Part shown: piece after piece, positions 10,012 through 63,561 of the stretch
Layout: every line of letters starts with the position of its first letter
Numbering within the stretch: position 1 is the first letter of the stretch
Virus record (IMG/VR): IMGVR_UViG_3300049014_000001
Location: 24,956-88,955 of that record
Origin: a virus
Lineage: Duplodnaviria; Heunggongvirae; Uroviricota; Caudoviricetes
Strand: one strand, 5' to 3'
Length of the DNA stretch: 64,000 bases
Notes under the pieces: generated by a model
The model's database searches: none
What the model was told of the DNA's origin: nothing
The model's input: only the letters and a program-made list of their open reading frames with translations
Made by a program: the position numbers and the translations under genes

Positions 10012-10716
10012 ATGAAAAAGCTCATCGGCTATGTACGTGTCTCCACCAAGGAGCAAGGCAAGACCAAGAACGGTTTGGAGGCTCAGGCCGAAGCCATCCG
10101 TCTGTTCGCACACTATAACGGCTACGAGCTGATTGACATCGCAGAAGAAGTGATGTCCGGTGCTGATGATAACCGTCCTGTCCTCGCAGAAGTGACACGT
10201 CGAGCTGCCAAACTGGGCGCATACGTGGTCGTCAACAAGCTGGATCGTCTGTCTCGTAATGCCCTGTTCATCCTGAAGTATATCGATCAGAATAGCAAGT
10301 TCATCGTGACCATGCTTGGGGATAACGTAGACCCGTTCATGCTCCACATCTACGCCGGTTTGGCGGAAAAGGAGCGCATGATGATCGCAGAACGCACCAA
10401 GGCAGCTCTGGCCGCTAAAAAGGCCCGTGGTGAAGCTCTGGGGGCGTCTGAAGCTGTGCTGGAGAAGGCAAGGGTCAGTGCTGGAGCTGCCGAAGCCACG
10501 AAGGCAGATGACTTTGCAGCCCGTTTGCGCCCGACTCTGACCCGCATGAAGAAAGATGGCATGACCCTGCGTGAAATGGCTCAGGAATTGAATGCCAGCG
10601 GCACGAAAACGGCTCGTGGTGGCGAATGGCATCCAACAATTTTTAAAAAGGTGGTTTTTCTCTTGGTTGATTGCGGGCTCCGCCCACGCCCCAGTTGGGG
10701 CTTTACAAAAACATAG
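10012..10716 (+). CDS. Small serine recombinase (resolvase/invertase family)
   Basis: N-terminal IGYVRVSTKEQ catalytic-serine motif, ...SGADDNRP..., LDRLSRN, C-terminal HTH; about 200-230 aa. Confidence 0.85.
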   Translation: MKKLIGYVRVSTKEQGKTKNGLEAQAEAIRLFAHYNGYELIDIAEEVMSGADDNRPVLAEVTRRAAKLGAYVVVNKLDRLSRNALFILKYIDQNSKFIVTMLGDNVDPFMLHIYAGLAEKERMMIAERTKAALAAKKARGEALGASEAVLEKARVSAGAAEATKADDFAARLRPTLTRMKKDGMTLREMAQELNASGTKTARGGEWHPTIFKKVVFLLVDCGLRPRPSWGFTKT

Positions 10717-10742
10717 CTAGTACTACTAACCAAGGAGAAAAT

Positions 10743-11339
10743 ATGACCCCTGCACAACGTTGCGCAAAAGTTTCCCAGAACATGGACAACATTGCCCTCA
10801 TCACCTTCGCCATTGGCTTCTGCAAAGCCGCCCACTTCGGCCAGAAACGTAAATGGTCGTTCGAACCTTATTGGACTCACCCTATGGCGGTGGCAAACAT
10901 CCTGCATGAACACGGCCACAATGACCCTCACATGCAAATTGTCGCCCTGCTGCACGATGTAGTAGAGGACACGCCTATCACTCTGGAAGAAATCACTGAG
11001 CACTTTGGCGAAAAGGTAGCTGAAGATGTCCACTGGCTCACGAAAGTGGACTACAGCAAGCACACAGACCCCTTCGGCATGCCCCTGAAACGCGCTGCGA
11101 AGAAATTCCTTGAGAACCTTCGTCTGAGCCGCGCTCCACAGCACGTCAAAACGATTAAGCTTGCCGACCGCTTGCACAACATGACCATTCTCACGGAAGA
11201 CCCGGCTTTTGCTCCGCTCTACGCAGAAGAGACTCGTGAGCTTCTTGACTACGCCTTGAAAGAAGGCTGTCCTGTCCTGTGGGCAAAGCTGGACAAAATT
11301 ATCAAGAATTTCCAAAATCCTATTGACAAGGCTATCTAA
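10743..11339 (+). CDS. HD-domain hydrolase of the RelA/SpoT (p)ppGpp-hydrolase type (small alarmone hydrolase-like)
   Basis: H...HD motif with ALLHDVVEDT signature; start re-set to MTPAQR after RBS AAGGAGAAA. Confidence 0.65.
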   Translation: MTPAQRCAKVSQNMDNIALITFAIGFCKAAHFGQKRKWSFEPYWTHPMAVANILHEHGHNDPHMQIVALLHDVVEDTPITLEEITEHFGEKVAEDVHWLTKVDYSKHTDPFGMPLKRAAKKFLENLRLSRAPQHVKTIKLADRLHNMTILTEDPAFAPLYAEETRELLDYALKEGCPVLWAKLDKIIKNFQNPIDKAI

Positions 11340-24766: not shown

Positions 24767-25303
24767 ATGGATTTTGATGTCCTGAATGAGGAAGTCTCTC
24801 TAAGAAAGAACCCAAAAATTCCCCAGTTGGCTTGGAAATTTGAGCTGTATGCTGGCTGGAACAATTTTGAAAATAGTTTGGTAGCACTACTTGACAAGCT
24901 ACAAAAACACAGGCAAGATGTCATCTTCGACCAATCAAAGGAGAAACTTATGAACGTAGTAGTAGCGATCATTGATGAAGCATTGTCCCGTCTGTGGAAC
25001 GGGGAAAACGAAAACGACTTCTACATTGAAGGCCAAGTTCAACTTGAACGTTATGCTTGTCATGCAGTAGTTAGGGGAGCAATGGTGGTGCTTGGCATGG
25101 ACTATGACAGTTCTCAAGCACATGACGAAACTCTGAAGATCACCAAACGCATTGAAGATCGTATTGAGTACTACTTCACTGCTACTTCCTACTTGCGGGA
25201 AAAGGATGAGAACTTTGATGAGTCCACAGTGTATGCCCAGAACTTCCGCAAGCAAATGCTGCTGGACATTCGTAACCAACTGATGGAAGAGGCCCAAGGA
25301 TGA
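24767..25303 (+). CDS. Hypothetical protein
   Basis: 178-aa track ORF; first gene of the long plus-strand block. Confidence 0.5.
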   Translation: MDFDVLNEEVSLRKNPKIPQLAWKFELYAGWNNFENSLVALLDKLQKHRQDVIFDQSKEKLMNVVVAIIDEALSRLWNGENENDFYIEGQVQLERYACHAVVRGAMVVLGMDYDSSQAHDETLKITKRIEDRIEYYFTATSYLREKDENFDESTVYAQNFRKQMLLDIRNQLMEEAQG

Positions 25304-31276: not shown

Positions 31277-31584
31277 TGGCTGTCGTCACTACTTACGTTT
31301 GCGATGTATCAGGCAAGAGTGGAACTGAACGAAAAGACTTCGTAGACGTTCAAATCAGTGCCACTCATCACATCCCTAGCCCACACTACGCTAGCGGGCA
31401 TGTCACGAGTAGCGTTAATGTAAAGAAGCTGATTCACAAATACGTAGCAGCCAAGCTTAACCTGCTTCTTCCGCAAGAACAGGAAAAGAGTGAGGCTCCT
31501 GAAGTGTCCTTGGAGGGCAAGCTGAAGGCTCTGCTGAAGGACTATGTAGCAGAACTGGTTGAAGAACATATGGAGGAACGATGA
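31276..31584 (+). CDS. Hypothetical protein
   Basis: 102-aa track ORF. Confidence 0.45.
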   Translation: MAVVTTYVCDVSGKSGTERKDFVDVQISATHHIPSPHYASGHVTSSVNVKKLIHKYVAAKLNLLLPQEQEKSEAPEVSLEGKLKALLKDYVAELVEEHMEER

Positions 31585-32633
31585 TCGTTGTAGAAGGTAA
31601 ATGCGGCATCAAGGCTACGGTGCTGGCACATAGCGTAAGCCCTCAAGGCATTGAGATGATTACGTTCGAAATCGAGTACCCCCGCCTGATTCTGGCAGAA
31701 CTGAACACTCACCGGGACAAATCTCGTAACAGCTTCAGTAGCCGTGCTGTGCCATTCGAAAAGATGATTCAGCAGCTTACGGGTCGGCCTGTACGCTTCG
31801 GTGCGAACCAAGCGGGTATGCAGGATAAGGGTGAAGATTTCAAAGCTGCGGTGAAGTACAAGAAGAGTCTGCTGAATGGCGTACCTGAAGACATGTCAAT
31901 GGATGTATTCAGTGCGTGGGAGTGGGCCAAGCAAAACGCAATCTGTCACGCAAAGGCGCTGTATGAAGCTGGCTACCACAAGCAAGTGTACAACCGTCTG
32001 CTGGAACCGTTTCAGATGATGAAGACTGTCATCAGTGGTACAGAGTGGGCTAACTTCTGGTGGCTTCGTGATGATGAAGCAGCAGACCCTACGATTGCTG
32101 AACTGGCACGTTGCATGCGTGAAGCCCAGCGTAAGAGTAAGCCTTTCTTGCTACATGCTGGTGAATGGCACTTGCCTTATATTGACATGAACATTGCCAT
32201 CATGCCTGACGGTAGCCGTGAGCAAATCTTCACTATCGATGAGCACTTCATCCTGAAAGGAGAGAACAAGCTGCTGCCGCATTTGACTCTGGAACAGGCC
32301 ATCAAAATTTCCTGTGCTCGTTGTGCAGCCGTGTCCTATCGGAACGAAGGCTACGGACTGGAGAAGAGTCTGGAAGTGTATGACCGTCTGGTAGGAAGCG
32401 AGAAAAAGCATGCTTCTGCGTTCGAACACTGCGCTACGCCGATGGCCACACGGCAAGGAATGCCAATGTCTATCTGTGGCCGCGTGAATCTACCTTTCTC
32501 GCCGGGCACGTGGGAAGAAGGTATTTCGCATGTTGACCGTAAAGGCAACCTGTGGTCGGGCAACCTGAAGGGCTGGATTCAATACCGTAAGCTGATTAAA
32601 GGGGAAAATTATGAAGGGGAAGAAATCGCTTGA
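31581..32633 (+). CDS. thyX: Flavin-dependent thymidylate synthase-like protein
   Basis: 350 aa; N-terminal ThyX-like region with THRDKSRNSFSSR matching RHR-x7-S spacing; sits in the nucleotide-metabolism context. Confidence 0.5.
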   Translation: MIVVEGKCGIKATVLAHSVSPQGIEMITFEIEYPRLILAELNTHRDKSRNSFSSRAVPFEKMIQQLTGRPVRFGANQAGMQDKGEDFKAAVKYKKSLLNGVPEDMSMDVFSAWEWAKQNAICHAKALYEAGYHKQVYNRLLEPFQMMKTVISGTEWANFWWLRDDEAADPTIAELARCMREAQRKSKPFLLHAGEWHLPYIDMNIAIMPDGSREQIFTIDEHFILKGENKLLPHLTLEQAIKISCARCAAVSYRNEGYGLEKSLEVYDRLVGSEKKHASAFEHCATPMATRQGMPMSICGRVNLPFSPGTWEEGISHVDRKGNLWSGNLKGWIQYRKLIKGENYEGEEIA

Positions 32634-33012
32634 GTACCGGCTTCAATGTGCGCTTCGTATTGCTCAGCTTGATCCTAATGCAAGTGTAATCTACGCAACA
32701 GGAAGTGTAGAGAAGGCGAACGATGTGTGGCACACGTTGATTAATCTGGTAGGGAAGCCAAATGGATTCTCATACAGACTAATTCAAAGGGAAGCTCGAC
32801 ATGACGGTGGAGGCTTCTTTAAAGTGCTGCCAGTTTGTGAACCCTACTGGCATTACGGAGGCTGGCAGATGAGTCATCTGTGGTTAGACGAAACACTCTC
32901 ACGTGCAGGAAGAGAAGCAATCTCATCTCGTCATAGAAGCGCAAAGGAGCATAACTACGAGCCTCCGGGTATCTATGATGAGTATGGCGTTACAAGGAGA
33001 ATGGACTACTGA
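32611..33012 (+). CDS. Hypothetical protein
   Basis: 133-aa track ORF. Confidence 0.45.
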   Translation: MKGKKSLEYRLQCALRIAQLDPNASVIYATGSVEKANDVWHTLINLVGKPNGFSYRLIQREARHDGGGFFKVLPVCEPYWHYGGWQMSHLWLDETLSRAGREAISSRHRSAKEHNYEPPGIYDEYGVTRRMDY

Positions 33013-34772
33013 TGCAAAACAAATGGGGCATTGACTTGTCTTACCCTCACAACTGTCAATGTCCTCGTTGTGCCAGAAATGGACGAGACACGGCGAAGGA
33101 CAACCTGCAAGTTTATGGAGAGGGTAAGGGCGCTTACTGCCATGCGTGCGAATTCACAATCTTGAGTGATGCAGAGCGAGAGGCACGCGGGATTGATTTT
33201 GAAGATGAGGAAGAGGAAGTGAGCACAAGAGAGCGACTTACAAAGGAAGAAAATGAAAAGATTAAGAGCTACACCGGCCTCAAGTGCAAGGGCTGGCGGG
33301 GCATCAAGGACGAAACAAATAAGTTCTTTGGTATTCGTTATACCTACGACGAAAACACAGGAGAACCAGATGCACAGTACGTACCAACTACCATCAACGG
33401 AGAGCTGGTTGGTTACAAAGTACGCACCTTCCCAAAGGACTTCTCCAGTCCTGTAGGGTTGGTAGGCAAGGATTGTGATCTTGCTGGACAGTTCCGCTTC
33501 CAGAACGGAGGTAGAACACTTCTGTTGGTGGGTGGTGAGGTGGACTTGGAATCTGCTTACCAAATGCTGGCAGAGTATCAGGCTTCTCGTGGCTATGAGC
33601 CTATCCCTGTGGTATCACCCACTGTTGGAGAGACAGGCTGTGTGAAGCAGGTACAAGCGCAGTATGAGTGGTTCAACAAGTTCGACAAAATCATCATTGG
33701 CATGGATAATGACGCTGCTGGTGAAGCTGCTGTACACAAGCTGGCTAAGGTGCTGCCGAAGAATAAAGTGTACGTGGCAAAGTGGAGCAAGAAAGACCCG
33801 AATGCTATGCTTCAAGCAGGCATGGAGAAGCAGTTCGTCAACGATTACTTTAAGGCTAAGCCGTACACGCCGGATGGTATCGTAGGTGCTGCATCGCTGG
33901 CAGATAAGATTCGTGAAGCAGCAGCAATGCTCAAGATTCCTCTGCCTCCGTTCATGCACCGTCTGCAAACAATGATGGCTGGTGGTATCCCGCTGAAGAC
34001 GATTATCAACCTCGGCTCCGCATCGGGTACAGGCAAGAGCACCATCATTGACGAGATGACCTACTACTGGATTTTCAACAGTCCGTACAAACCGGGGATC
34101 GTTACTCTTGAGAGTGATTCAGGCCAGTATGGTACGAAGATTCTTAGTCGTCACCTTGGACGGAAGATTGACCTGATCGAAGATGTCACCGATAAGCTTG
34201 CGTATCTGGATTCGGACTACGTTCGACAGAAGGAGAAGGAGCTTTACTTCCGTGAAGATGGTAGCGAACGCTTCTATTTGATCGAAGACCGTGACGGTGG
34301 TTTGGATTCGATGAAGGAAAAGATTGAACAGCTCATCATCGCATGTGGATGTCAGCTTATCATTCTCGACCCTCTGCAAGACATCTTGGATGGTATGAGC
34401 AACGAAGATCAAGCAGTGTTCCTTAAGTGGATGAAGGGCATGGTGAAGAGCCACGATGTGACGTTCATCAACGTGAACCACGTACGTAAGAGCCAAGGCG
34501 GCAAGCAAGCTAACTCGACTGGTGCAGACCTGTTCGAAGAAGATATGCAAGGTTCGTCTTCCATCTTCAAGTCTGGTGCATGTAACCTGCTGTTCAACCG
34601 TAACAAGGAAGCAGAAGACGAAATCGAACGTAACACCACTAAGATGAAGGCTTCGAAGATTCGTTGGACTGGTCGTACTGGCGTAGCTGGAGAGTACTAC
34701 TACGACAACGCAACACACACCATGTATGACAAGGAAGATTGGCTGGCAAAGAATGGTGTGAAGGAATTTTAA
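33012..34772 (+). CDS. Bifunctional primase-helicase (T7 gp4-like)
   Basis: Zn finger CQCPRCARNGRD...CHACEF, TOPRIM LLLVGGEVDLES, DnaB-type Walker A GSASGTGKST, Walker B IILDPLQD. Confidence 0.85.
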   Translation: MQNKWGIDLSYPHNCQCPRCARNGRDTAKDNLQVYGEGKGAYCHACEFTILSDAEREARGIDFEDEEEEVSTRERLTKEENEKIKSYTGLKCKGWRGIKDETNKFFGIRYTYDENTGEPDAQYVPTTINGELVGYKVRTFPKDFSSPVGLVGKDCDLAGQFRFQNGGRTLLLVGGEVDLESAYQMLAEYQASRGYEPIPVVSPTVGETGCVKQVQAQYEWFNKFDKIIIGMDNDAAGEAAVHKLAKVLPKNKVYVAKWSKKDPNAMLQAGMEKQFVNDYFKAKPYTPDGIVGAASLADKIREAAAMLKIPLPPFMHRLQTMMAGGIPLKTIINLGSASGTGKSTIIDEMTYYWIFNSPYKPGIVTLESDSGQYGTKILSRHLGRKIDLIEDVTDKLAYLDSDYVRQKEKELYFREDGSERFYLIEDRDGGLDSMKEKIEQLIIACGCQLIILDPLQDILDGMSNEDQAVFLKWMKGMVKSHDVTFINVNHVRKSQGGKQANSTGADLFEEDMQGSSSIFKSGACNLLFNRNKEAEDEIERNTTKMKASKIRWTGRTGVAGEYYYDNATHTMYDKEDWLAKNGVKEF

Positions 34773-34816
34773 CAACCTCGTAGGTAGTGTTAGCTACCTA
34801 CTAACAAGGAGAACAA

Positions 34817-35941
34817 ATGAGTAAAGCAACCAACAAAGTAACTAACCTCTTCCGTAACACTTACGTTGTCATCGGAGACAATGGCCCCGATGAAGACCTT
34901 CAACGCGCAATGTTCCAGATGGGCTTCCGCTGGGGTGGCGATAAGAATCGTAAGATTGATAGGCTTGCACAAAACTACATTCTTGTAGATGAAAATTTCG
35001 AAATGTGGTTTACCAGTGAAAAAGGTATTACTGATCCTAACCACTATAGCTGCAATGAGCCATGTGTCGAAGTCCCTCGGAGTTCTGTTATCAAAGCTTC
35101 CGAGAAAGTACGTAAGATCAAGCGTAAGGAAAGCAAGGAACAGAAGAAGCGGGCTGCACGTCGTAAGTGGGTGAACAACTCCACAATCAACAACGGCCGG
35201 AAACCTGTTGCGGATGACGAACTGGTAACTATTCGTCGGAAAGATGGAGAAATTCGTTCCGGCTTTGCTGGTAGTTTCGATTGGGGTGTTTATGGCTATG
35301 ACCAAGACATCGAAAGCTACAAAGTGCTGAAGCGTAATAAGCATCACCCAGTACCACAAGAAAGGACTGTCACGCTTGAAAAAATGCTGACCGATGTAGC
35401 TTGGGACTTGGGTAAGGGCGTAGCGATTCCTGTGCATGATATGGAGTACAGCGGCAACGTCATCAAAGCACCGGGAGAGTACACGCTTGCACCTATGGCT
35501 GAAATTAAAGGTGAAGCTGTACCCGACACTAACCCTAAGCGTCAGTATGGTGTGGCATCCGTACCGCTGAACATGTGGAGTCCTCTGGCCTCTGCATACG
35601 GCTCTCTGGGCCTGTACAACGGTGCGCTGAAGTATGGCAAGGCTAACTTTGCTAACACTCCGGTGGAGGCTTCGATTTACATTGCTGCTGCATTCCGTCA
35701 CCTGTCGGCTTGGGCATGCGGAGAGGAATACGATCCTGCTGATGGTGTGCCGAATCTGGGCGGTGTGCTGGCTAATATCGCTATCCTGCTGGAGGCTCGT
35801 GCTGCCGGTACGCTGATTGATGATCGACTGAAGATGGCTGGCTACCTGAAGGAAATCGAAAAGCTGAAGGAAATCGTGAAGCACCTGAACAAGCTGCACG
35901 AAGGTAAGAACCCTAAACACTACACGCTGGAGGAAAAATAA
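34817..35941 (+). CDS. Hypothetical protein with basic N-region and C-terminal nucleotide-pyrophosphohydrolase-like helical domain
   Basis: 374 aa; KVRKIKRKESKEQKKRAARRKW; C-terminal KYGKANFANTPVEASIYIAAAFRHLSAWACGEEYD resembles dATP/dGTP diphosphohydrolase-type domains (tentative). Confidence 0.5.
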   Translation: MSKATNKVTNLFRNTYVVIGDNGPDEDLQRAMFQMGFRWGGDKNRKIDRLAQNYILVDENFEMWFTSEKGITDPNHYSCNEPCVEVPRSSVIKASEKVRKIKRKESKEQKKRAARRKWVNNSTINNGRKPVADDELVTIRRKDGEIRSGFAGSFDWGVYGYDQDIESYKVLKRNKHHPVPQERTVTLEKMLTDVAWDLGKGVAIPVHDMEYSGNVIKAPGEYTLAPMAEIKGEAVPDTNPKRQYGVASVPLNMWSPLASAYGSLGLYNGALKYGKANFANTPVEASIYIAAAFRHLSAWACGEEYDPADGVPNLGGVLANIAILLEARAAGTLIDDRLKMAGYLKEIEKLKEIVKHLNKLHEGKNPKHYTLEEK

Positions 35942-36474
35942 TGGCACCAGAAATTATGATGTACAGCGGCAAATACTTCAACTTTCTATCTCCAGAAACC
36001 TCGGAGTTCACGATTGAAGACGTTGCACTTGCCCTGAGCCGCATCAACCGCTACACCGGGCATACGCGCTTCCCTTACTCGGTAGCTCAACACTGTGTGC
36101 TTGGTAGTTTGCAGTTTAAAGACAAGGGCATGGCATTGGAGTTCTTATTGCACGATACGTCTGAAGCGTTTATGGGCGACGTAGCAACTCCGTTGAAGCT
36201 GATGCTACCTGAGTACCAAGCAATCGAGAAACGTGTTGAGAAGGCCGTTGCAGAGCGTTTTGGCACAAACTTCCCGATGCTGCCTGAAATCAAGGAAGCA
36301 GACCTTCGTATGCTGGCTACTGAGGTGATCCAGTTGATGCCTCCAGCGGCACAGCAGTGGGAAATCTTGCGTGGCGTACAGCCATATAAGATCGATATTG
36401 ATCCGTGGTCGCCTGAACATGCTGAATGGCAGTACAAGCGCCGTTTTAACGAACTTACTGGAAAGGAACGCTAA
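35941..36474 (+). CDS. HD-domain 5'-deoxynucleotidase (YfbR-like)
   Basis: AQHCVLGS...LLHDTSEAFMGD HD motif arrangement. Confidence 0.65.
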   Translation: MAPEIMMYSGKYFNFLSPETSEFTIEDVALALSRINRYTGHTRFPYSVAQHCVLGSLQFKDKGMALEFLLHDTSEAFMGDVATPLKLMLPEYQAIEKRVEKAVAERFGTNFPMLPEIKEADLRMLATEVIQLMPPAAQQWEILRGVQPYKIDIDPWSPEHAEWQYKRRFNELTGKER

Positions 36475-53906: not shown

Positions 53907-54194
53907 ATGCAAGTGTACGTTGTGGAGTTTGAGAAGCATCCCGGCTTGTTCAAGATTGGACTGAGCAAAGATGTGAAGCAAAGGCTTCCGCAACTCAAAG
54001 TCTCCCACGGTGAACCACTGAACATGAAACGGTGGACTGTGGGAGCTAGGTACAGGATAATTGAGAGGGCTTTGCATAAAGCCTTTTCGTCCTACCGTAA
54101 GCCTGTACCCGGAGAGGGAGGCACAGAATTTTTTGATGTGGTCGTAAGACCGAACGTAGAAAGGATATTGGACGATGAAGTTGACTGTGTATAG
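53907..54194 (+). CDS. T5orf172 / GIY-YIG-like domain small protein
   Basis: MQVYVVEFEKHPGLFKIGLSKDVKQRLPQLK...TEFF; inserted between nrdA and nrdH. Confidence 0.5.
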   Translation: MQVYVVEFEKHPGLFKIGLSKDVKQRLPQLKVSHGEPLNMKRWTVGARYRIIERALHKAFSSYRKPVPGEGGTEFFDVVVRPNVERILDDEVDCV

Positions 54195-55105: not shown

Positions 55106-55395
55106 ATATCGGATTTGACTACGATGATACGTTCACTCGTGATCCTGCTGGATGGTCGCAGATTATCAATTTCCTTACCAAGCGAGGGCACAAAGTGTAC
55201 ATCGTTACATGGCGCACCACAGCAGAGTGCATGCGTGTCCACGCAGAGATGCAGTATTGGAAAGTAGATATCGAAGGTATCTTTGCAACGCATAGGACAG
55301 CTAAAGAGCCTTACATGAACCAGCGTGGTATCATCATTGACGTTTGGGTTGATGACAATCCTCGTGCGGTAATTAAAGACATGGAGAAGTTGTAA
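55102..55395 (+). CDS. HAD-superfamily phosphatase (5'(3')-deoxyribonucleotidase-like), GTG start
   Basis: Motif I GFDYDDTF (DxDxT) and motif IV DVWVDDNP; RBS GGAGG before GTG. Confidence 0.6.
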   Translation: MNIGFDYDDTFTRDPAGWSQIINFLTKRGHKVYIVTWRTTAECMRVHAEMQYWKVDIEGIFATHRTAKEPYMNQRGIIIDVWVDDNPRAVIKDMEKL

Positions 55396-55811
55396 TGAAC
55401 AAGATTGATTCGTTTAGCGGAGGCTATCGCTTCCTGTCTAACTTCTGGTACAACCCAGATGGCTATACCAATGAGCATCGCTTCCAAGCAGCTAAGGCTA
55501 AACATAAGGAACACTACGACTGGATTATGGAATCCAAGTCTCCCGGTGAGGCCAAACGTCGTGGTCGGCAAGTGCCAATGCGTGAAGACTGGAATGACAT
55601 TCGCATCGGCGTTATGCTGGAACTTACTACTGAAAAGTTTAAAGACCCAGCGCTACGTGCTCAGTTGCTTGCTACTGGGGATGCTGAACTCATCGAAGGC
55701 AATACATGGGGTGATCGGTTCTGGGGCGTCTGCGACGGTGAAGGTCAGAACTGGCTTGGCCAATGCCTGATGAACGTCCGTGAGGGCATTCGAAATGTGC
55801 AAGGTAGTTAA
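55395..55811 (+). CDS. NADAR-domain protein (YbiA-like N-glycosidase acting on ADP-ribose derivatives)
   Basis: FLSNFWYNP...EHRFQAAKAK...W(x)I...GDRFWG signature of DUF1768/NADAR. Confidence 0.65.
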   Translation: MNKIDSFSGGYRFLSNFWYNPDGYTNEHRFQAAKAKHKEHYDWIMESKSPGEAKRRGRQVPMREDWNDIRIGVMLELTTEKFKDPALRAQLLATGDAELIEGNTWGDRFWGVCDGEGQNWLGQCLMNVREGIRNVQGS

Positions 55812-56079
55812 CAAACGCTACCAAGCATATGATGTCTACATAGGAAGGGGAAGCCCTCTTGGTAATCCTTTTCCTATTGACGAGAACACAGGACAAACAC
55901 GAAGCGTCGTTATCGAGAAGTACAGACGATGGTTGTGGGAAGAGATGAAGGCTGGTAGAATAACTAAGGAGTACTTGCTATCGTTGGACGGGAAGGCTCT
56001 TGGATGTTTTTGCGCACCTTCACCTTGTCACGGTGATGTTATTGTACAAGCGGTAAATTGGATTAAGGAAAACAAATAA
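55795..56079 (+). CDS. DUF4326-domain protein (frequent NADAR partner)
   Basis: YDVYIGRGSPLGNPF...KYRRWL...GKALGCFCAPSPCHGDV. Confidence 0.55.
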   Translation: MCKVVNKRYQAYDVYIGRGSPLGNPFPIDENTGQTRSVVIEKYRRWLWEEMKAGRITKEYLLSLDGKALGCFCAPSPCHGDVIVQAVNWIKENK

Positions 56080-56351: not shown

Positions 56352-56828
56352 GTGAAGCTAGTAATCGCAGGTAGTCGTTCCATCAAGGACTATCATATAA
56401 CTCGCCAAGCTTTCCTTGAAAGTGGTCTATGGGATAAGTACAAAAAGAAGCTTGAAATTATTTCTGGGGAAGCAGAAGGCCCAGATAAGCATGGTGAAAT
56501 CATCGCTGAAAAAGCTGGACTGAAGCTCCACAGGAAGCCCGCTGACTGGGGCAACGTCAAAGCGAAGGGTGCTGTAATTCGTCATAACAGCCGTGGAGCT
56601 TACAACGCTCTTGCTGGACACTGGCGTAACGAAGAGATGGCTCACATGGCAGACTGTGCTCTAATCGTCTGGGATGGCAAATCTACTGGCAGCTTGGATA
56701 TGCTTCATCGGATGATCGCTCTGGAGAAGCGTGCTATCCTGTACCCTCTTCGTATCAGCGCTGATGCTCTGGACTCGCTGCAAGATAAGTGCGAAATTAT
56801 TTTTCCAAACCAGTTGACAAGCACGTAA
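56352..56828 (+). CDS. SLOG-superfamily (DUF2493 / DprA-LOG-like Rossmann) protein
   Basis: MKLVIAGSRS...IISGEAEGPDKHGEIIAEKAGL matches the GxAxGxD nucleotide-binding SLOG pattern. Confidence 0.5.
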   Translation: MKLVIAGSRSIKDYHITRQAFLESGLWDKYKKKLEIISGEAEGPDKHGEIIAEKAGLKLHRKPADWGNVKAKGAVIRHNSRGAYNALAGHWRNEEMAHMADCALIVWDGKSTGSLDMLHRMIALEKRAILYPLRISADALDSLQDKCEIIFPNQLTST

Positions 56829-56876: not shown

Positions 56877-57254
56877 ATGAACTACAAAGAACTCGTCGTA
56901 GAACTGAAGGAAGCTAAGTCCCTGATCGACTCCCCTGAGAAATGGACTCAACATAAATTCGGTAGGGATGCTTGGGGGCATGGCCTGAGTACTAATGAGT
57001 GGAGCGATACTCCGCCAGCATGCATGTGCTCCGTTGGTGCTATCTACGAAGTAAATCGTCGTAAAGACCCTACTGTGTGCTTGTACAAAGTAAGCTCCAC
57101 CAGAAGCGACAATGCTGCCAGCTTCCTTACTCGTGTCGCTGGGGAAGTTATTACCCGCTTCAATGATAGCCACTCTCACGCTGAAGTAATGGCTCTCTGG
57201 GACAAAGCAATTGCTAAGGCGGAAAAACTGGCAGCAGAAGGAGAAGAAAAATGA
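56877..57254 (+). CDS. Unknown-function protein, paralogue A of a tandem pair
   Basis: Shares SPxKW(x)Q, C(M/F)CS(V/L)GA and FNDSxxH(x)EV...DKAIA(x)AE blocks with the next gene. Confidence 0.55.
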   Translation: MNYKELVVELKEAKSLIDSPEKWTQHKFGRDAWGHGLSTNEWSDTPPACMCSVGAIYEVNRRKDPTVCLYKVSSTRSDNAASFLTRVAGEVITRFNDSHSHAEVMALWDKAIAKAEKLAAEGEEK

Positions 57255-57571
57255 AGGTAAGCCAACAACTGAAAGCAGCAAAAGCCATCATTGCCTCTCC
57301 TAGCAAGTGGCTTCAAGGGGCGTATGCTAAGGATGCAGATGGCTTTTACATGCGTGGCAACAATACCAATGCAGTTTGCTTCTGCTCGTTGGGAGCTTTG
57401 CAAGCTGTGAATCAAACCGACAGTGATGCTCCATCTCAGCCAGCTATCGCCGTTTTGAAGCAGTTCATGGGAGGGGATGTTCCAGAATTCAATGATAGCG
57501 CCACTCACGAGCAAGTGTTGGAGGCATTTGATAAAGCTATCGCTGCTGCGGAGGAACAGGAGGCAGCGTGA
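57251..57571 (+). CDS. Unknown-function protein, paralogue B of a tandem pair
   Basis: Same conserved blocks as 56877-57254. Confidence 0.55.
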   Translation: MKVSQQLKAAKAIIASPSKWLQGAYAKDADGFYMRGNNTNAVCFCSLGALQAVNQTDSDAPSQPAIAVLKQFMGGDVPEFNDSATHEQVLEAFDKAIAAAEEQEAA

Positions 57572-57739: not shown

Positions 57740-57919
57740 AAACGTGAAGGTAAGTACATCTCCCGTTGGTGCTATAACCCCGGCATCAAAGGCTTCAACA
57801 AGAAGACTAATCAATACACCTACAATATTCGCGCTGGTGCTCACTTTGATCTAGTAAAGGTGAAGCACGCCCAGCTTGGTATTGTTCTGTTACGTAAAGT
57901 ACGAAAGGAATTCGAATGA
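57716..57919 (+). CDS. Small basic protein (TTG start)
   Basis: Track ORF; RBS GAAGGAGAAG. Confidence 0.4.
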   Translation: MKVTQSRNKREGKYISRWCYNPGIKGFNKKTNQYTYNIRAGAHFDLVKVKHAQLGIVLLRKVRKEFE

Positions 57920-58734
57920 GCATCCGTATCGTAGGCTATCCAGAAGCCTTTACCAAAACAACTTTCCCCGGTGGAGAGTCGTGCATCCGTGTCACCATGA
58001 ACACTCCAATGGAGCCTGACCTGACGCTGGAACTGGCATTCGAAAACAACGGTGATCTATTCGACTTGGCCTTGCTGGCTGACGCACTTCGACGTAAGTT
58101 CCCAGAGAAGAAGCTGAAACTCTGGATGGGTTACACTCCTTATGCACGTCAGGATCGCGTATGTAACGAAGGTGAAAGCCTGTCCATTAAAGTTGTGGCA
58201 GATTTCATCAACTCGCTGAAGTTCGAAGCTGTGTGTATCATCGACCCTCACTCGGATGTCACTCCTGCGCTGTTTGAACGTGCTATGGTGATCGAACAGA
58301 AGTGGCTGTGTACTCGTCCACAGTTGCGTACGAATCCTAGTAACACTATCATCGTAGCTCCTGATGCCGGTGCAGCAAAGAAAGCTCGTGCATTCGCTCA
58401 ACTCGGTGGCTTCGCTGGGCTGGTACAAGCTGAGAAAGTTCGTGAGCTTTCTACTGGTAACATTCTGGAAACTCGTGTACAATCTGAACACATTGGTGAT
58501 AAGGACTTCCTCATTGTGGATGACATCTGCGATGGTGGCCGTACCTTCACCGAATTGGCAAAGGTGCTTCGTCCTCTTACCAATGGCAAGATTAAGCTGT
58601 TCGTAACACACGGTATCTTCTCGGCGGGTGAAAAAGTATTTGACAACCTGATTGATGAAGTGTACACTGCTAATCCTGTCGGGGCTACTGGACGAGCAGC
58701 CGTAGAAAGTGGTATCAAAGTAGTCCGTATCTAA
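57916..58734 (+). CDS. Ribose-phosphate pyrophosphokinase-family enzyme (Prs-like; candidate ADPR-pyrophosphate synthetase Adps)
   Basis: GYTPYARQDR, IIDPHSD, IVAPDAGAAKKARAFA, PRTase motif FLIVDDICDGGRT, VTHGIFSAGE. Confidence 0.75.
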   Translation: MSIRIVGYPEAFTKTTFPGGESCIRVTMNTPMEPDLTLELAFENNGDLFDLALLADALRRKFPEKKLKLWMGYTPYARQDRVCNEGESLSIKVVADFINSLKFEAVCIIDPHSDVTPALFERAMVIEQKWLCTRPQLRTNPSNTIIVAPDAGAAKKARAFAQLGGFAGLVQAEKVRELSTGNILETRVQSEHIGDKDFLIVDDICDGGRTFTELAKVLRPLTNGKIKLFVTHGIFSAGEKVFDNLIDEVYTANPVGATGRAAVESGIKVVRI

Positions 58735-58770
58735 CGCTACGTATGTAGCAAACTAACCAAGGAGAATTAA

Positions 58771-59157
58771 ATGAAAAAGCTTTTCGCTCTGTTGCTGGTG
58801 GCTGTATCTCTCGTTGCTTGCGGCCCTGATCGTCCACCTGTCCCGGTGATTAACCAAGAAGGCCAACCTGTGGCTCAACAAGCTCAAGGCGGTGGTGATG
58901 GCTTTGACACTGGTGACGCCGCTGTAGGCGCTCTGGCCGGTGCTGCTGCTGGTTACATGATGGGCAAGTCGTCCAACAGCCAGCCACAACGCACCGTGAT
59001 CGTGGACAATCGTAGTCCATACTACGGCCCAAGCTACCGCAACTACGGTAGCCCGTATGGTCGTAAATCTGTGACCACTACTACGACTACTACCAAGCGC
59101 AGTGCATTCGGTGGCCGTACCACTACCACCACTCGCAGCGTAACTCGTCGTCGTTAA
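58771..59157 (+). CDS. Glycine-zipper lipoprotein (Pcp/SlyB-like)
   Basis: Lipobox LVAC, GALAGAAAGYMMG glycine zipper, Thr-rich tail. Confidence 0.55.
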   Translation: MKKLFALLLVAVSLVACGPDRPPVPVINQEGQPVAQQAQGGGDGFDTGDAAVGALAGAAAGYMMGKSSNSQPQRTVIVDNRSPYYGPSYRNYGSPYGRKSVTTTTTTTKRSAFGGRTTTTTRSVTRRR

Positions 59158-59170
59158 TTAAGGAGAGCAA

Positions 59171-60829
59171 ATGAAAATCAAACCACACCTGATTCTGGAT
59201 TCGTACAAGCTGGGCCACATCGACCAATACCCTGAAGGTACTCAGTACGTGTACTCCAACCTGACCGCTCGTTCTGCTGCTCACGCTAAGATGGGCAACA
59301 TGTTCGACAACAAGGTGGTGTTCTTCGGTCTGCAAGGTTTCATTCAAGAATTCCTGATCGAAGCATGGAACGAACACTTCTTCGCTCGTCCTAAAGACGA
59401 AGTGATTGTGGAGTACAAGCGCCGTTGTGATAACTTCCTCGGCCCTGATGCTGTTCGTACTGACCACATCGCAGCACTGCATGATCTTGGCTACCTGCCT
59501 ATCTTCATCAAAGCTCTGCCTGAAGGCTCCCGTGTGAACATCAAGGTTCCGTTCCTGACGATTCGTAACACGCTGCCTCAGTTCTACTGGCTGACGAACT
59601 ATCTGGAAACCGTGCTGTCGGATGAACTGTGGCAAATGTGTACCGTAGCTACCATTACCTACGAGTACCGTCGAATCCTGAACAAATATGTCGAACTGAC
59701 TGGCTCGTCCAAAGAGTTCGCTGACTGGCAGATTCATGACTTCTCGATGCGTGGTATGGCTGGCTGGCATGCTTCGGCTAAGGCCGGTGCTGCTCACTTG
59801 CTGTCGTCCCGTGGCACTGATACTCTGCCAGCAGTGGATTATTTGGAACAGTACTACGGTGCTGATGTTACGAAGGAACTGGTTGCTGGCTCCGTACCAG
59901 CTACGGAACACTCCGTAATGTGCATGGGTGGCATGGGTGAAGCAGAATTGGAAACCTTCCGTCGTCTGATTACCAAGACCTACCCACAAGGTATCGTGTC
60001 TATCGTGTCGGATACGTGGGACTTCTGGACTGTCATCACCAAGTACACGGTGGCACTGAAGGAAGAAATCTTGAACCGTAAGGAGAACGCTCTAGGCATG
60101 GCTAAAGTTGTGTTCCGTCCTGACTCCGGTGATCCTGTGAAGATCGTTGCTGGTCTGCGTGTGAAGGATATTTCTGATGCACGTTTCAATACAGATGCCG
60201 ATGGCAAAGTGTTCGTCAACGTTGACGATGTACTTAAACTTGTTGAGAGCTACGATGCGGTACGTATCTTCGGTAAAGTGTTTGAATTCGATGCAGCTCG
60301 TGGCTGGGGAATCTTCCTCGGTCGAGAAGTAGCTGACCACGAAGTGAAAGGTGCTGTGGAATGCCTGTGGGATGTGTTCGGTGGTGACATCACTGAGAAG
60401 GGCTACAAGACGCTGAACCAGCGTGTGGGCCTGATCTACGGGGATAGCATCACTCTGGAACGTGCAGAACAAATCCTGCAACGCCTGAGGGATAAAGGCT
60501 TCTCGGCCGGTAACATCGTGTTCGGTGTAGGCTCGTTCACCTACCAGTACATGACGCGTGACACCTTCGGCATGGCTGTAAAGGCTACGTGGGGTCAAGT
60601 GAACGATGAAGCTCGTGACATTCAGAAAGACCCTGCTACTGGCGATGGTATGAAGAAGTCTGCTACCGGCCTGTTGCGTGTTGAAAAAGTGGATGGCAAC
60701 TACTACCTGTTCGACCGTCAGAATATCGTAGAAGAGATGTACGGTGAACTTAAAGAAGTATTCCTTGACGGTAAGGCATACAACACTCAGAGCTTTGCTC
60801 AGATCGTAGAACGTCTGAAGAAAGACTAA
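59171..60829 (+). CDS. Nicotinamide phosphoribosyltransferase-family enzyme (Nampt/NadV or Namat)
   Basis: 552 aa; N-terminus ILDSYKLGHIDQYPEGTQYVYSNLTARS matches the Nampt start (DSYK...QYP); type II PRTase length. Confidence 0.7.
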   Translation: MKIKPHLILDSYKLGHIDQYPEGTQYVYSNLTARSAAHAKMGNMFDNKVVFFGLQGFIQEFLIEAWNEHFFARPKDEVIVEYKRRCDNFLGPDAVRTDHIAALHDLGYLPIFIKALPEGSRVNIKVPFLTIRNTLPQFYWLTNYLETVLSDELWQMCTVATITYEYRRILNKYVELTGSSKEFADWQIHDFSMRGMAGWHASAKAGAAHLLSSRGTDTLPAVDYLEQYYGADVTKELVAGSVPATEHSVMCMGGMGEAELETFRRLITKTYPQGIVSIVSDTWDFWTVITKYTVALKEEILNRKENALGMAKVVFRPDSGDPVKIVAGLRVKDISDARFNTDADGKVFVNVDDVLKLVESYDAVRIFGKVFEFDAARGWGIFLGREVADHEVKGAVECLWDVFGGDITEKGYKTLNQRVGLIYGDSITLERAEQILQRLRDKGFSAGNIVFGVGSFTYQYMTRDTFGMAVKATWGQVNDEARDIQKDPATGDGMKKSATGLLRVEKVDGNYYLFDRQNIVEEMYGELKEVFLDGKAYNTQSFAQIVERLKKD

Positions 60830-60837
60830 GAGGAAGT

Positions 60838-61113
60838 ATGACTCTCGACCGCTTCGGAGAAGAGCTGTACATCGGTGATATTGTGGTGTACGCAGACACA
60901 AATGTAAGCGGTGATGGTGTGATTTCGTTGGATGTCTACAACGTGATTGAGCTGATTGATGTAAATACATGCATAGGTCAGCTCATGAACGGAAGGTATG
61001 CAGGTAACACTTTCTACCTAACAGAGACAACCAACCGTTGCGCTTACATGTATGAATCCAATCCTGAGCCTGAAGAAGGTGATGAGGATTTGGTAAAACC
61101 AATTTTTAACTAA
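60838..61113 (+). CDS. Hypothetical protein
   Basis: 91-aa track ORF. Confidence 0.45.
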   Translation: MTLDRFGEELYIGDIVVYADTNVSGDGVISLDVYNVIELIDVNTCIGQLMNGRYAGNTFYLTETTNRCAYMYESNPEPEEGDEDLVKPIFN

Positions 61114-61126
61114 GGAGAAATAACAA

Positions 61127-62473
61127 ATGGCAAAACAATCGAAAAACTACATCGGCTTCGTGAACGATCACTCCGGTTCCATGTCCTCGCTGGCTGTTGC
61201 TGCTGCCCGTGACTACAACACGAACATCGCTGCAATCAAGGATGCTGCAACTCGTGAAATGCTGGATACTGTTGTCAGCGTCGTAGGTATCGGTCTGGGT
61301 GCAGGCGTTGAACGTCAAGTAGTCGTATCCAATCCTCACGTTCTGAAGCCTATCGCTAGCTGGCCTACTCCGGGTGGCACCCCACTGTACGATGGTATTG
61401 GCGACATGATCGACCTGCTGCAATCGCTGCCAGATTCGAATGAGTCTCACGTTTCGTTCCTGATTATGATTACCACTGACGGTCAGGAAGAACACTCCCG
61501 GAAATATGATAAGGTAGCCCTGCGTAACAAAATCGAAGCCCTTAACAAGGATGGTCGTTGGACTCTGGTGTTCCGTGTTCCTCGTGGTAAAGGCTACACT
61601 GTGACGGGTCTTGGCGTTCCATCTGGTAACATCCAAGAATGGGATACCACGACTAAAGGCATGGAGCAATCCACTGTACTGAATACGCAGGCTGTTGATA
61701 CCTACTTCGCTACTCGTTCGGCTGGTGGCAAGTCGTCTAACGTGTTCTACACCAACACTGCTTCTGTGAACACTTCGGCTCTGGTGGACATCAGCGCAAA
61801 GACTTCGCTGTACGTGGTTGACCAATTCCATAATGGTGCTCAGATTCGTGACTTCATCCTGTCGAAACGCACTGAATACCTGATTGGTGCAGCGTTCTAC
61901 CAGCTCACCAAAACTGAGCCTAAAGTGGCCCCTTCGAAGCTGATTCTGATCCGCGAGAAGACTACTGGCAAAGTGTACGCTGGCCCTGACGCCCGTAAGA
62001 TGCTGGGTCTGGATACCGTTAACAACGCTCGTATCCACCCTAACCACGGCAACGGCGAGTACGACATCTTCATCCAGTCGGAGTCGGTGAATCGTAAGCT
62101 GGTGGCTGGTACTGGCGTTCTGTACTGGGCCGAGAAAGGTCGTCCTGTAACTCAAGCCGATCTGGAACGCTACGCTGGGCAGAACAAAGCTGCTGCTCCT
62201 GCTGTGCCTGTGCTGGCTCAAGCTCCTGCTACTGGCAAACCTACGCCTAGCCCGGTAGCTGCTAAGAAGATCGCTGCCAAGCCTGTCAACTCGACTAAGC
62301 CAGTAGCAATCATTCCTAGCGACGGTGGCCGTGTGCGTTACCACATTGCTCCGGCAAACGCTGCGTTCTACGCCACTCGTGACATGGCCCGTGCTCAAGC
62401 ACTGGTGCAAGGCAAGAAGTCGTATGATGCAGGCCCAACCGCTGGTAAAGGCTTCCGCTTCTACGTAGCATAA
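61127..62473 (+). CDS. von Willebrand factor A (vWA) domain protein with Pro/Ala-rich linker
   Basis: MIDAS-type DHSGSM ... TPLYDG ... ITTDGQE; C-terminal AAPAVPVLAQAPATGKPTPSP low-complexity region. Confidence 0.6.
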   Translation: MAKQSKNYIGFVNDHSGSMSSLAVAAARDYNTNIAAIKDAATREMLDTVVSVVGIGLGAGVERQVVVSNPHVLKPIASWPTPGGTPLYDGIGDMIDLLQSLPDSNESHVSFLIMITTDGQEEHSRKYDKVALRNKIEALNKDGRWTLVFRVPRGKGYTVTGLGVPSGNIQEWDTTTKGMEQSTVLNTQAVDTYFATRSAGGKSSNVFYTNTASVNTSALVDISAKTSLYVVDQFHNGAQIRDFILSKRTEYLIGAAFYQLTKTEPKVAPSKLILIREKTTGKVYAGPDARKMLGLDTVNNARIHPNHGNGEYDIFIQSESVNRKLVAGTGVLYWAEKGRPVTQADLERYAGQNKAAAPAVPVLAQAPATGKPTPSPVAAKKIAAKPVNSTKPVAIIPSDGGRVRYHIAPANAAFYATRDMARAQALVQGKKSYDAGPTAGKGFRFYVA

Positions 62474-63084: not shown

Positions 63085-63561
63085 ATGACATTGAAGATCG
63101 AAACCGGCGACGTGTTCAACGAGCTGTATTTCAAAGCAGAGAAGGGTGAGCCTGTCATCTTCGTCCACGGCTGCAATGCTAGAGGTGTGATGGGAAGTGG
63201 CGTAGCAGCTCTCGTCAAGAAGCTCTATCCGTTTGCCTACGATGCGTACAAGAAGGAGTACAACGACTACGGTTTCGACCTTGGCTTTGCTCAGTTCTGC
63301 GACGACACATCTACGTCTGTCACTGTGGTGAATGCCATCACCCAAAAGAACTTCGGGAAAGATGGCAAGCTGTACGTAGATTACGACGCTGTAATCAAAG
63401 CTCTTGAGCTGGTAGCTAGCGTAGCTAAGACTCGCAACCATCCTGTCTACCTGCCTATGATTGGCGGTGGCCTTGGTGGTGGAGATGTAAAACGACTCAC
63501 AGCGATTTTCCAAGCTGTGTTCCACGATGTAGATGCAACCCTGTACTTGAAGGAGGATTAA
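63085..63561 (+). CDS. Macro-domain protein (ADP-ribose binding / hydrolase)
   Basis: FVHGCNARGVMGSGVAALVKKLYP ... MIGGGLGGG matches macro-domain ADP-ribose pocket motifs. Confidence 0.65.
   Translation: MTLKIETGDVFNELYFKAEKGEPVIFVHGCNARGVMGSGVAALVKKLYPFAYDAYKKEYNDYGFDLGFAQFCDDTSTSVTVVNAITQKNFGKDGKLYVDYDAVIKALELVASVAKTRNHPVYLPMIGGGLGGGDVKRLTAIFQAVFHDVDATLYLKED

Follow-up and report, generated by a model that had tools for sequence, protein, structure and literature searches.

Do two phage genes that are routinely named after ribose-phosphate pyrophosphokinase (Prs) and nicotinamide phosphoribosyltransferase (Nampt) serve ordinary nicotinamide salvage, or do they rebuild NAD+ that host immunity has consumed? 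This question is raised by a locus on 64,000 nucleotides of viral DNA (IMG/VR virus record IMGVR_UViG_3300049014_000001, positions 24,956 to 88,955), a stretch that we call the window and in whose coordinates all positions are given. A previous, sequence-only reading of the window had noted a Prs-family gene one gene away from a gene for a 552-aa protein of the Nampt family and had proposed an NAD+ reconstitution pathway (NARP), with type 1 (NARP1) favoured over type 2 (NARP2). Both open reading frames (ORFs) and both family assignments are confirmed here. The clamp motif of the larger protein, the similarity to verified enzymes, the Adps-type profiles, the pairing of the genes and a search that found no NMN (nicotinamide mononucleotide) adenylyltransferase (NMNAT) likewise favour NARP1. 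Thus, the locus is very probably a NARP1 operon of an uncultured phage of about 90 kb. Family membership, conserved catalytic and substrate-selectivity residues and the gene pairing point to this reading, and by homology to the systems of SPbetaL1, Bas63 and FADO the operon is predicted to carry out the corresponding NAD+ chemistry and to act against host defence. It comprises three genes:

57916..58734, + strand: adps, Prs-family gene of 272 aa, predicted ADP-ribose pyrophosphokinase
58771..59157, + strand: gene between adps and namat for a glycine-zipper lipoprotein of 128 aa
59171..60829, + strand: namat, Nampt-family gene of 552 aa, predicted nicotinamide ADP-ribose transferase

NARP1 has been defined as an Adps-clade pyrophosphokinase with a Namat encoded within 10 genes; a Namat is found nearby for 97% of Adps-clade genes, and the system occurs in 859 phage genomes, or 4.3% (Osterman et al., 2024, bioRxiv 10.1101/2024.02.11.579819). 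NARP2 is composed of a Nampt of the KVP40 clade and an Nmnat, the latter present in 94% of such phages (Osterman et al., 2024). In the phage studied here, the pathway would start from a host immune NADase of the SIR2, TIR or SEFIR type that cleaves NAD+, releasing ADP-ribose (ADPR) together with nicotinamide. Adps would use ATP to pyrophosphorylate the free ribose of ADP-ribose, giving ADP-ribose pyrophosphate (ADPR-PP), and Namat would exchange its pyrophosphate for nicotinamide, which would yield NAD+ in one step. NAD+ would in this way be regenerated without an NMNAT and without salvage enzymes of the host.

The larger protein carries much of the argument. By family models it is a Nampt-like protein (NAPRTase and NAMPT_N in Pfam; NF006629 in NCBIfam with 556 bits; phrog_448 in PHROGs with E 1e-197). 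Among solved structures, its best match is the Namat of SPbetaL1 (9w5x/9w5w, 499 bits), while Nampt structures score far lower (about 196 bits for mammalian enzymes, 179 bits for that of Xanthomonas). The SPbetaL1 structure revealed an adenine "selectivity clamp" that distinguishes Namat from Nampt (Lan et al., 2026, PMC12774641). Three stretches of the gene in the window bear on this comparison:

60530..60562, + strand: codons of the selectivity-clamp helix of Namat, G454-S-F456-T-Y-Q-Y460-M-T-R-D464
59270..59314, + strand: codons of the variable clamp loop (SCL), R34-SAAHAKMGNMFDNK
60155..60346, + strand: codons of a lineage-specific insertion, residues about 329-392

The clamp helix reads GSFTYQYMTRD, with the aromatic residues F456 and Y460, compared to GSFTYQYNTRD in SPbetaL1 and FADO and GSYTYQYMTRD in Felixounavirus wV8, which belongs to the same genus as Bas63. 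A motif of this type is found in nearly all of the 80 nearest relatives on viral contigs. Three NARP2-type Nampts have GGGLLQQSDRD, GGGLLQMVNRD and GTKLVNPERGRD at the same site, without any aromatic residue. These references are the proteins of Vibrio phage 1.081.O (Schizotequatrovirus, the genus of KVP40), Aes508 and K64-1, the last with an adjacent NadM gene; the Nampt of KVP40 itself was sought at 200-245 kb of NC_005083 and was not there. All 17 catalytic and clamp residues that we checked are identical to those of SPbetaL1 Namat, including the catalytic equivalents R316, D217, F191 and H247 (R306, D215, F189 and the catalytic His in SPbetaL1). Overall identity follows the same division, with 50.5% to the SPbetaL1 enzyme, 52.8% to FADO and 45.1% to wV8, but only 28.8-30.3% to the three NARP2-type proteins, and Namat and NARP2-type Nampts are separated in 200/200 bootstraps. 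In a sampled ranking of 2,043 tblastn matches among phage records, identity drops from 37-55% to at most 31%, with the NARP2-type references in the low group, and the model phrog_15800 gives 262 bits for the window protein compared to 94-103 for the NARP2-type proteins. The 552-aa protein is, as judged from these residues and comparisons, a Namat with the predicted reaction ADPR-PP + nicotinamide -> NAD+ + PPi (pyrophosphate).

Two parts of the protein vary within the family. The clamp loop is naturally variable, and mutation of the loop alone cost SPbetaL1 Namat only 1.3-1.7-fold (Lan et al., 2026). In the window protein the residue after the Ala of this loop is His38; it is kept in all nine loci of the window's clade in which the loop is covered (L010-L019 in our numbering of loci) and could serve as an adenine-stacking residue. 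For residues about 329-392, SPbetaL1, FADO and an Acinetobacter homologue offer no equivalent and have 13-14 residues instead. Across 88 members of the Namat family, the length at this insertion site ranges from 13 to 97 residues and varies even among close relatives; the Felixounavirus enzyme has 90 residues there, while NARP2-type Nampts lack the insertion. A side observation concerns the PDB entries 9ke8 and 9keo, which are named "nicotinamide phosphoribosyltransferase". 9ke8 scores 403 bits against the 552-aa protein, and the closest relative of these entries in the phage collection is SPbetaL1 Namat (55% identity over 310 aligned residues). Their helix motif, GAQTYQRNTRD, is non-aromatic at positions 3 and 7 and thus intermediate between Namat and Nampt; no phage of the collection matches 9ke8 as its source.

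The smaller protein matches the general models of its family, namely Pribosyl_synth, Pribosyltran_N and Pribosyltran in Pfam, TIGR01251 in NCBIfam and phrog_619 (E 6e-82). The scores obtained with these and with a curated Prs model, in bits, are as follows:

TIGR01251: window protein 119, SPbetaL1 106, FADO 96.5, wV8 124, E. coli Prs 423
NF002320: window protein 97, SPbetaL1 74, FADO 64, wV8 92, E. coli Prs 533
phrog_619: window protein 276, SPbetaL1 248, FADO 246, wV8 325, E. coli Prs 193

On curated Prs models the window protein scores like verified Adps and stays far below the cut-offs of the subfamily and equivalog models (97 vs 297 and 107 vs 296), and the ranking is reversed on the phage family model phrog_619. 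A hidden Markov model (HMM) that we built from 70 Namat-linked Adps sequences, with the clade of the window omitted, gives 276 bits for the window protein and 135 bits for E. coli Prs. The functional loops agree with these scores. A consensus of 79 Namat-linked sequences reads DDiCDGGrTF, K.Rd..tG, dpHSdv and PDaGA.kk in the four loops, and the 272-aa protein has DDICDGGRTF, KVRELSTG, DPHSDV and PDAGAAKK, which match the Adps consensus and not Prs. The first of these loops is identical in the Felixounavirus enzyme; its Prs counterpart is DDMIDTGGTL, which holds the phosphate-binding loop for ribose-5-phosphate, so that DGGRT stands where Prs has DTGGT. The counterpart of the second loop is KRRPRA. 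In alignments, K174 occupies the position of the catalytic K162 in SPbetaL1 Adps and of K194 in E. coli Prs. The PDB holds no Adps structure, and the best match there is E. coli Prs with 77 bits. In the tree, Adps proteins are split from 11 Prs proteins in 200/200 bootstraps with either Poisson or p-distances, against a narrow, purely gammaproteobacterial Prs sample, because the only proteins recovered by the scan with E. coli Prs were gammaproteobacterial Prs at least 80% identical to it. A neighbour-joining support of 0.555 for this split was discarded as an artefact, since the distance correction is invalid at more than 85% divergence. Profiles and loop signatures thus identify the 272-aa protein as an Adps, with the predicted reaction ADPR + ATP -> ADPR-PP.

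The sequence-only reading had held that motifs alone cannot separate Prs and Nampt from Adps and Namat. The published criteria together with reference sequences decide for NARP1. The comparison by profile and phylogeny that the same reading had proposed places both proteins with Adps and Namat, each in 200/200 bootstraps. Clustering of both with housekeeping Prs and NadV, together with an NMNAT elsewhere in the genome, had been named as the outcome that would speak for ordinary salvage; the two proteins do not cluster in this way, and the NMNAT searches were negative throughout. As the earlier reading had noted, no NMNAT is found in the 64-kb window (tblastn and phmmer with NadM queries from K64-1 and Acinetobacter). 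Precomputed Pfam hits for the genes at about 10.7-73.5 kb, in window coordinates, contain no NMNAT-type nucleotidyltransferase, a direct Pfam scan of window positions 1-11.4 kb reveals none, and the extension of the search beyond the window, also proposed earlier, found none in the following 9.5 kb (73.5 kb examined in all). The gene pairing points in the same direction. Among the 80 closest relatives of the 552-aa protein on viral contigs, a Prs/Adps-like gene is adjacent on the same strand in 76 loci and the other four are cut by the contig end; no NadM-like gene lies within 8 kb in any of these 80 loci. Pfam hits for the window genes include no PnuC or NadR domain, as would be found in NARP3, and PADLOC gave no meaningful match for the three core genes.

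The closest known systems are the NARP1 operons of the Bacillus phages SPbetaL1 and FADO and of Escherichia phage Bas63 (Felixounavirus). They share with the window the two enzyme families, the order adps then namat on one strand, the clamp-helix motif, the checked catalytic residues and the catalytic Lys of Adps, and no NMNAT was found here as there. The Felixounavirus Namat also has an insertion at the same site as the window Namat. The window differs by the lipoprotein gene that separates adps and namat, by an Ala-His in the clamp loop instead of Arg or Lys-aromatic, by the sequence of its lineage-specific Namat insertion and by its distance, with identities of 45-53% for Namat and 28-37% for Adps. 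NARP2 of Vibrio phage KVP40 has the same Nampt fold, the same catalytic residues for nicotinamide and ribose-phosphate and the same outcome, restoration of NAD+. However, NARP2 Nampts lack the aromatic clamp and an Adps partner, need an NMNAT and are only about 29% identical to the window protein. NARP3, which combines a PnuC-like transporter and a NadR-like enzyme (PMC13464706), serves the same purpose during infection, but with unrelated proteins and another substrate, nicotinamide riboside. The top match in the phage collection is of a different kind. The record "Acinetobacter phage MD-2021a" (L003, CAKLQF020000015.1 46529-58004) is a fragment of a bacterial chromosome, in which an operon prsA_2-nadV-nadM is flanked by ABC transporter, AraC regulator and efflux genes. 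Its NadV is 61% identical to the 552-aa protein (four-sequence alignment). This operon has the Adps-type loop DDICDGGATF, the Namat motif GSFTYNYLTRD and the gene order of the window; it differs by an additional bifunctional NMNAT/ADP-ribose pyrophosphatase (Nudix), by chromosomal housekeeping neighbours and by a Namat without the insertion. Judged by these motifs, what is classically taken as a salvage operon of Acinetobacter may represent a bacterial version of NARP1 joined to an NMNAT/Nudix enzyme. NARP1 homologues have been reported from bacteria, for example from Paenibacillus foliorum (Lan et al., 2026), which agrees with this view.

Several observations weigh against the assignment to NARP1. 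The clamp motif of Namat is also present in the Acinetobacter operon, and since this operon encodes an NMNAT/Nudix enzyme as well, the motif is not exclusive to NMNAT-free systems. The clamp loop of the window protein is five residues longer than that of SPbetaL1 and has Ala at its third position, where Arg, Lys or Tyr is usual. The identity of the 272-aa protein to verified Adps (28-37%) is not far above its identity to E. coli Prs (26%), so that the Adps assignment rests on profiles, signatures and gene pairing. Published work shows that Namat enzymes retain activity from phosphoribosyl pyrophosphate (PRPP) to NMN in vitro, and the NMNAT search covered 73.5 kb (the window and 9.5 kb beyond) of an 89-kb contig, of which the other 15 kb or so are probably structural.

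Three other explanations have to be considered in this light. Classical nicotinamide salvage, which is how databases annotated such genes before 2024, would combine a true Prs making PRPP with a true Nampt making NMN, and host NadR, PncC or NadD would complete NAD+. The Pfam, NCBIfam and PHROG names all say Prs and Nampt, TIGR01251 is just passed (119 vs a cut-off of 113) and the in vitro formation of NMN by Namat enzymes would suit such a role. However, the window protein misses all Prs subfamily and equivalog models by about threefold or more, as verified Adps do and as E. coli Prs does not; it has replaced the DTGGT loop of Prs by DGGRT; and the adenine clamp, which Nampt lacks, is intact in its partner. 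The homologous operon of Bas63 functioned in the absence of host pncC and nadR, and PRPP was not formed by SPbetaL1 Adps. We consider classical salvage very unlikely. For a NARP2 system, in which a KVP40-type Nampt would act together with an NMN adenylyltransferase from another part of the genome, the roughly 15 kb of source contig outside the search leave some room. This explanation is extremely unlikely, given that the 552-aa protein shares as little identity with the Schizotequatrovirus, Aes508 and K64-1 Nampts as reported above and separates from them in every bootstrap, that NARP2-type proteins have no aromatic clamp and that the 73.5 kb contain no NMNAT; moreover, published surveys list no phage that combines an Adps-linked Namat with NARP2, that is, no phage carries both NARP1 and NARP2 (Osterman et al., 2024).

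A further explanation accepts the enzymes and changes their purpose. The pair might use both ADPR-PP and PRPP and mainly boost NAD+ for phage metabolism, such as phage ligases and redox reactions linked to ribonucleotide reductase (RNR), rather than counteract immunity, as may be the case for Acinetobacter prs-nadV-nadM. The closest database relatives of both window proteins indeed belong to this bacterial operon (61% and 33% identity), the genes lie in a nucleotide-metabolism module near RNR and glutaredoxin, and KVP40 NARP2 has been published to raise NAD+ even without a defence system. Still, the window has no NadM/Nudix partner, ADPR-PP was reported to appear in Bas63 infection only under an active defence system, and the neighbouring genes encode ADP-ribose-processing domains typical of counter-defence (NADAR, DUF4326, SLOG and Macro). 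A dual or hybrid route of this kind is highly improbable in our view, and NARP1 is the reading with which we proceed.

What, then, is the role of the gene between adps and namat? Recognizable in its 128-aa product are a lipobox-containing (LVAC) signal peptide, a glycine zipper GFDTGDAAVGALAGAAAGYMMGK and a tail rich in Thr and Arg, and 16 of the 17 members of its family match Gly-zipper_YMGG and Gly-zipper_Omp weakly. The database contains 19 homologues, all on contigs of the phage clade of the window, and wherever the context was read (window, L016, L095, L096/L097) the gene is located between adps and namat. The closest relatives have a different small gene in this slot (L010-L012) or none (L018). 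More widely, the gap between adps and namat reaches at least 250 nt in 26 of 78 loci (L010-L089), with inserts that include Macro genes, HNH endonucleases, a P-loop kinase-like gene, a HAD-like phosphatase and other small ORFs, as well as, judged by eye only, nucleoside-deoxyribosyltransferase-like or SLOG-like proteins; in 11 of the 78 loci the order is namat then adps. The junction of adps and namat is thus a hotspot of gene insertion. The lipoprotein is most likely a passenger in this insertion-prone slot, since a lipoprotein that is exported would hardly participate in NAD+ chemistry in the cytoplasm, and it is possibly a superinfection-exclusion factor. Two other roles were considered and rejected: that of a pathway enzyme, because the product is an exported lipoprotein that occurs in a single clade only and whose gene is missing from the closest relatives or exchanged for another, and that of a spanin, because the gene lies away from the lysis genes.

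Further genes of note lie around the operon:

55395-55811, + strand: NADAR protein, upstream of adps
55780-56079, + strand: DUF4326 protein, upstream of adps
56352-56828, + strand: YspA/YpsA-like SLOG protein, below the Pfam cut-off
56877-57254 and 57251-57571, + strand: two DUF6197 paralogues, upstream of adps
61127-62473: 448-aa protein without a Pfam family (phrog_26613), after a 91-aa ORF at 60838-61113
63085..63561, + strand: Macro-domain protein of 158 aa, candidate Adpp or other ADP-ribose hydrolase

The Macro gene is located five genes (2.2 kb) downstream of namat. The sequence-only reading, whose NAD+ pathway stands, had overlooked this Adpp-like gene and with it a possible extension of the pathway. 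The protein matches Pfam Macro and phrog_335 ("phosphatase"), aligns over its full length with the verified Adpp of Vibrio phage Gary (hhalign probability 99.6%, E 4e-24; 26% identity and E 3e-6 in BLASTP), and its family profile matches yeast Poa1p (E 6e-13 to 7e-12) as well as TARG1 and DarG. The gene is found 1.7-2.9 kb downstream of namat in all 10 loci of the window's clade, and the window protein shares 37% identity with Macro proteins whose genes stand between adps and namat in L027/L028. Pseudomonas phage PaoP5 has a related Macro gene close to namat, and in phage VCM one is located 2.9 kb downstream of adps. The system of Gary, termed NARP1-AP, consists of Adps, Adpp and Namat, with Adpp within two genes (Osterman et al., 2026, bioRxiv 10.64898/2026.01.28.702374). 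Its Macro protein is of the Poa1p/TARG1 class, also has 158 aa and is likewise linked to the NARP1 genes; the window gene, five genes downstream, lies outside this two-gene neighbourhood, and membership in NARP1-AP is hence not given by position. Neither the peptides VHGCNA/HGCNAQ nor MIGGGLGGG of the window protein occur in any protein of the supplementary files of Osterman et al. (2026). By sequence comparison the protein is a member of the Poa1p/TARG1/DarG class of Macro proteins, a class with several activities; an Adpp function is plausible and a DarG/TARG1-like role in de-ADP-ribosylation of DNA or protein is equally compatible. If it acted as an Adpp, it would add a step from ADPR-1''-phosphate to ADPR and make the locus a dispersed NARP1-AP, an extension that we regard as a serious possibility, somewhat short of an even chance.

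Upstream, the NADAR, DUF4326, SLOG and DUF6197 genes form a cluster that also precedes adps in L095 and L096. NADAR, DUF4326 and SLOG proteins have been predicted to process ADP-ribose derivatives (Iyer et al., PMC9503650). When single sequences served as queries, a SLOG homologue was found near NARP1 in 6 of 10 loci of the clade compared to 5 of 70 others, and NADAR and DUF4326 are rare. Downstream, the 91-aa ORF is tightly packed between namat and the gene for the 448-aa protein. The latter protein has 881 homologues, of which the top 120 are 53-74% identical to it, and is present in 10/10 clade loci. Its AlphaFold2 model (predicted local distance difference test, pLDDT, 84) reveals an N-terminal von Willebrand A (vWA) domain with an invariant DxSxS metal-ion-dependent adhesion site (MIDAS) motif, which Foldseek matches with probability 1.0 to the vWA domains of integrins and ANTXR, followed by further domains of no assigned fold. 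One could imagine that this clade has a larger island for the salvage of ADP-ribose (about 55.4-63.6 kb), with NARP1 as its sink. NADAR, the phosphatase-like DUF4326 protein, the YpsA-like SLOG protein and the Macro protein related to Adpp would turn different ADP-ribose derivatives of immune origin (ADPR-1''-phosphate, cyclic ADPR isomers and ADP-ribosylated bases) into ADPR for Adps. This idea is doubtful; if it were true, the embedded lipoprotein and the linked vWA-MIDAS protein would be functional partners and not passengers.

The position of the operon in the genome differs from the "late accessory block" described in the sequence-only reading. It closes the + strand module of replication and nucleotide metabolism (DNA polymerase, helicase, RNR, glutaredoxin) at its far end, and the genes after it, for lysis and tail-like functions, are on the opposite strand. 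The order RNR, glutaredoxin, ..., prs-like, nadV-like is the same as in Felixounavirus wV8. All three ORFs start with ATG, are preceded by ribosome-binding sites (AGGA/GGAG, 5-9 nt upstream), are separated by gaps of 36 nt (adps to the lipoprotein gene) and 13 nt (lipoprotein gene to namat) and have the base composition of the remaining phage DNA. Promoter-like and terminator-like sites around the operon are not in excess over chance, and none of the four terminator-like sites nearby is on the + strand. The sequence of the window is found on a metagenomic contig of 89,049 bp (JGI 3300071358) and also on a Logan contig of 53 kb. The genome size of about 90 kb is taken from the many relatives that lie on contigs of 88-93 kb. 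A megablast search with the locus matched none of 50,697 phage records, so that no phage in culture has closely related DNA. For the DNA polymerase, identity to the enzymes of Aeromonas and Pseudomonas (PAK_P1-like) myophages is 47-51%, and the source is an uncultured phage distantly related to FelixO1-like and PAK_P1-like myoviruses.

Three other regions of the window deserve mention. A serine recombinase gene at 10012-10716 (Resolvase domain, E 5e-28), followed by a gene for an HD-domain protein (10671-11339), is found in a phage that otherwise looks lytic. Adjoining the primase/helicase genes, a nucleotide-pool cluster at 31581-36474 has weak or unusual domain matches, namely a faint Thy1, dGTP_diPhyd_N (34817-35941) and YfbR-like (35941-36474), and might point to a modified nucleotide pool. 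Between the genes for the RNR large subunit and glutaredoxin, a 95-aa ORF with a T5orf172/MUG113 domain (GIY-YIG-related, 53907-54194) counts as a gene in the annotation of the JGI contig and not in that of the Logan contig, and the coordinates of the neighbouring genes are identical on both.

The counter-defence mechanism itself has been described before, and the locus is a further example of it, not a new mechanism. What changes is the annotation: two genes that are routinely called Prs and nicotinamide phosphoribosyltransferase become Adps and Namat, and this in an uncultured lineage of which many contigs, about 90 kb long, exist. The clamp motif of Namat together with the Adps loop (DDiCDGGrTF vs DDMIDTGGTL in Prs) tells NARP1 from NARP2 and housekeeping enzymes by sequence. 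In addition, the locus offers three leads into the biology of these phages, namely the hypervariable insertion site of Namat, the insertion hotspot between adps and namat and the dispersed, Adpp-like Macro gene.

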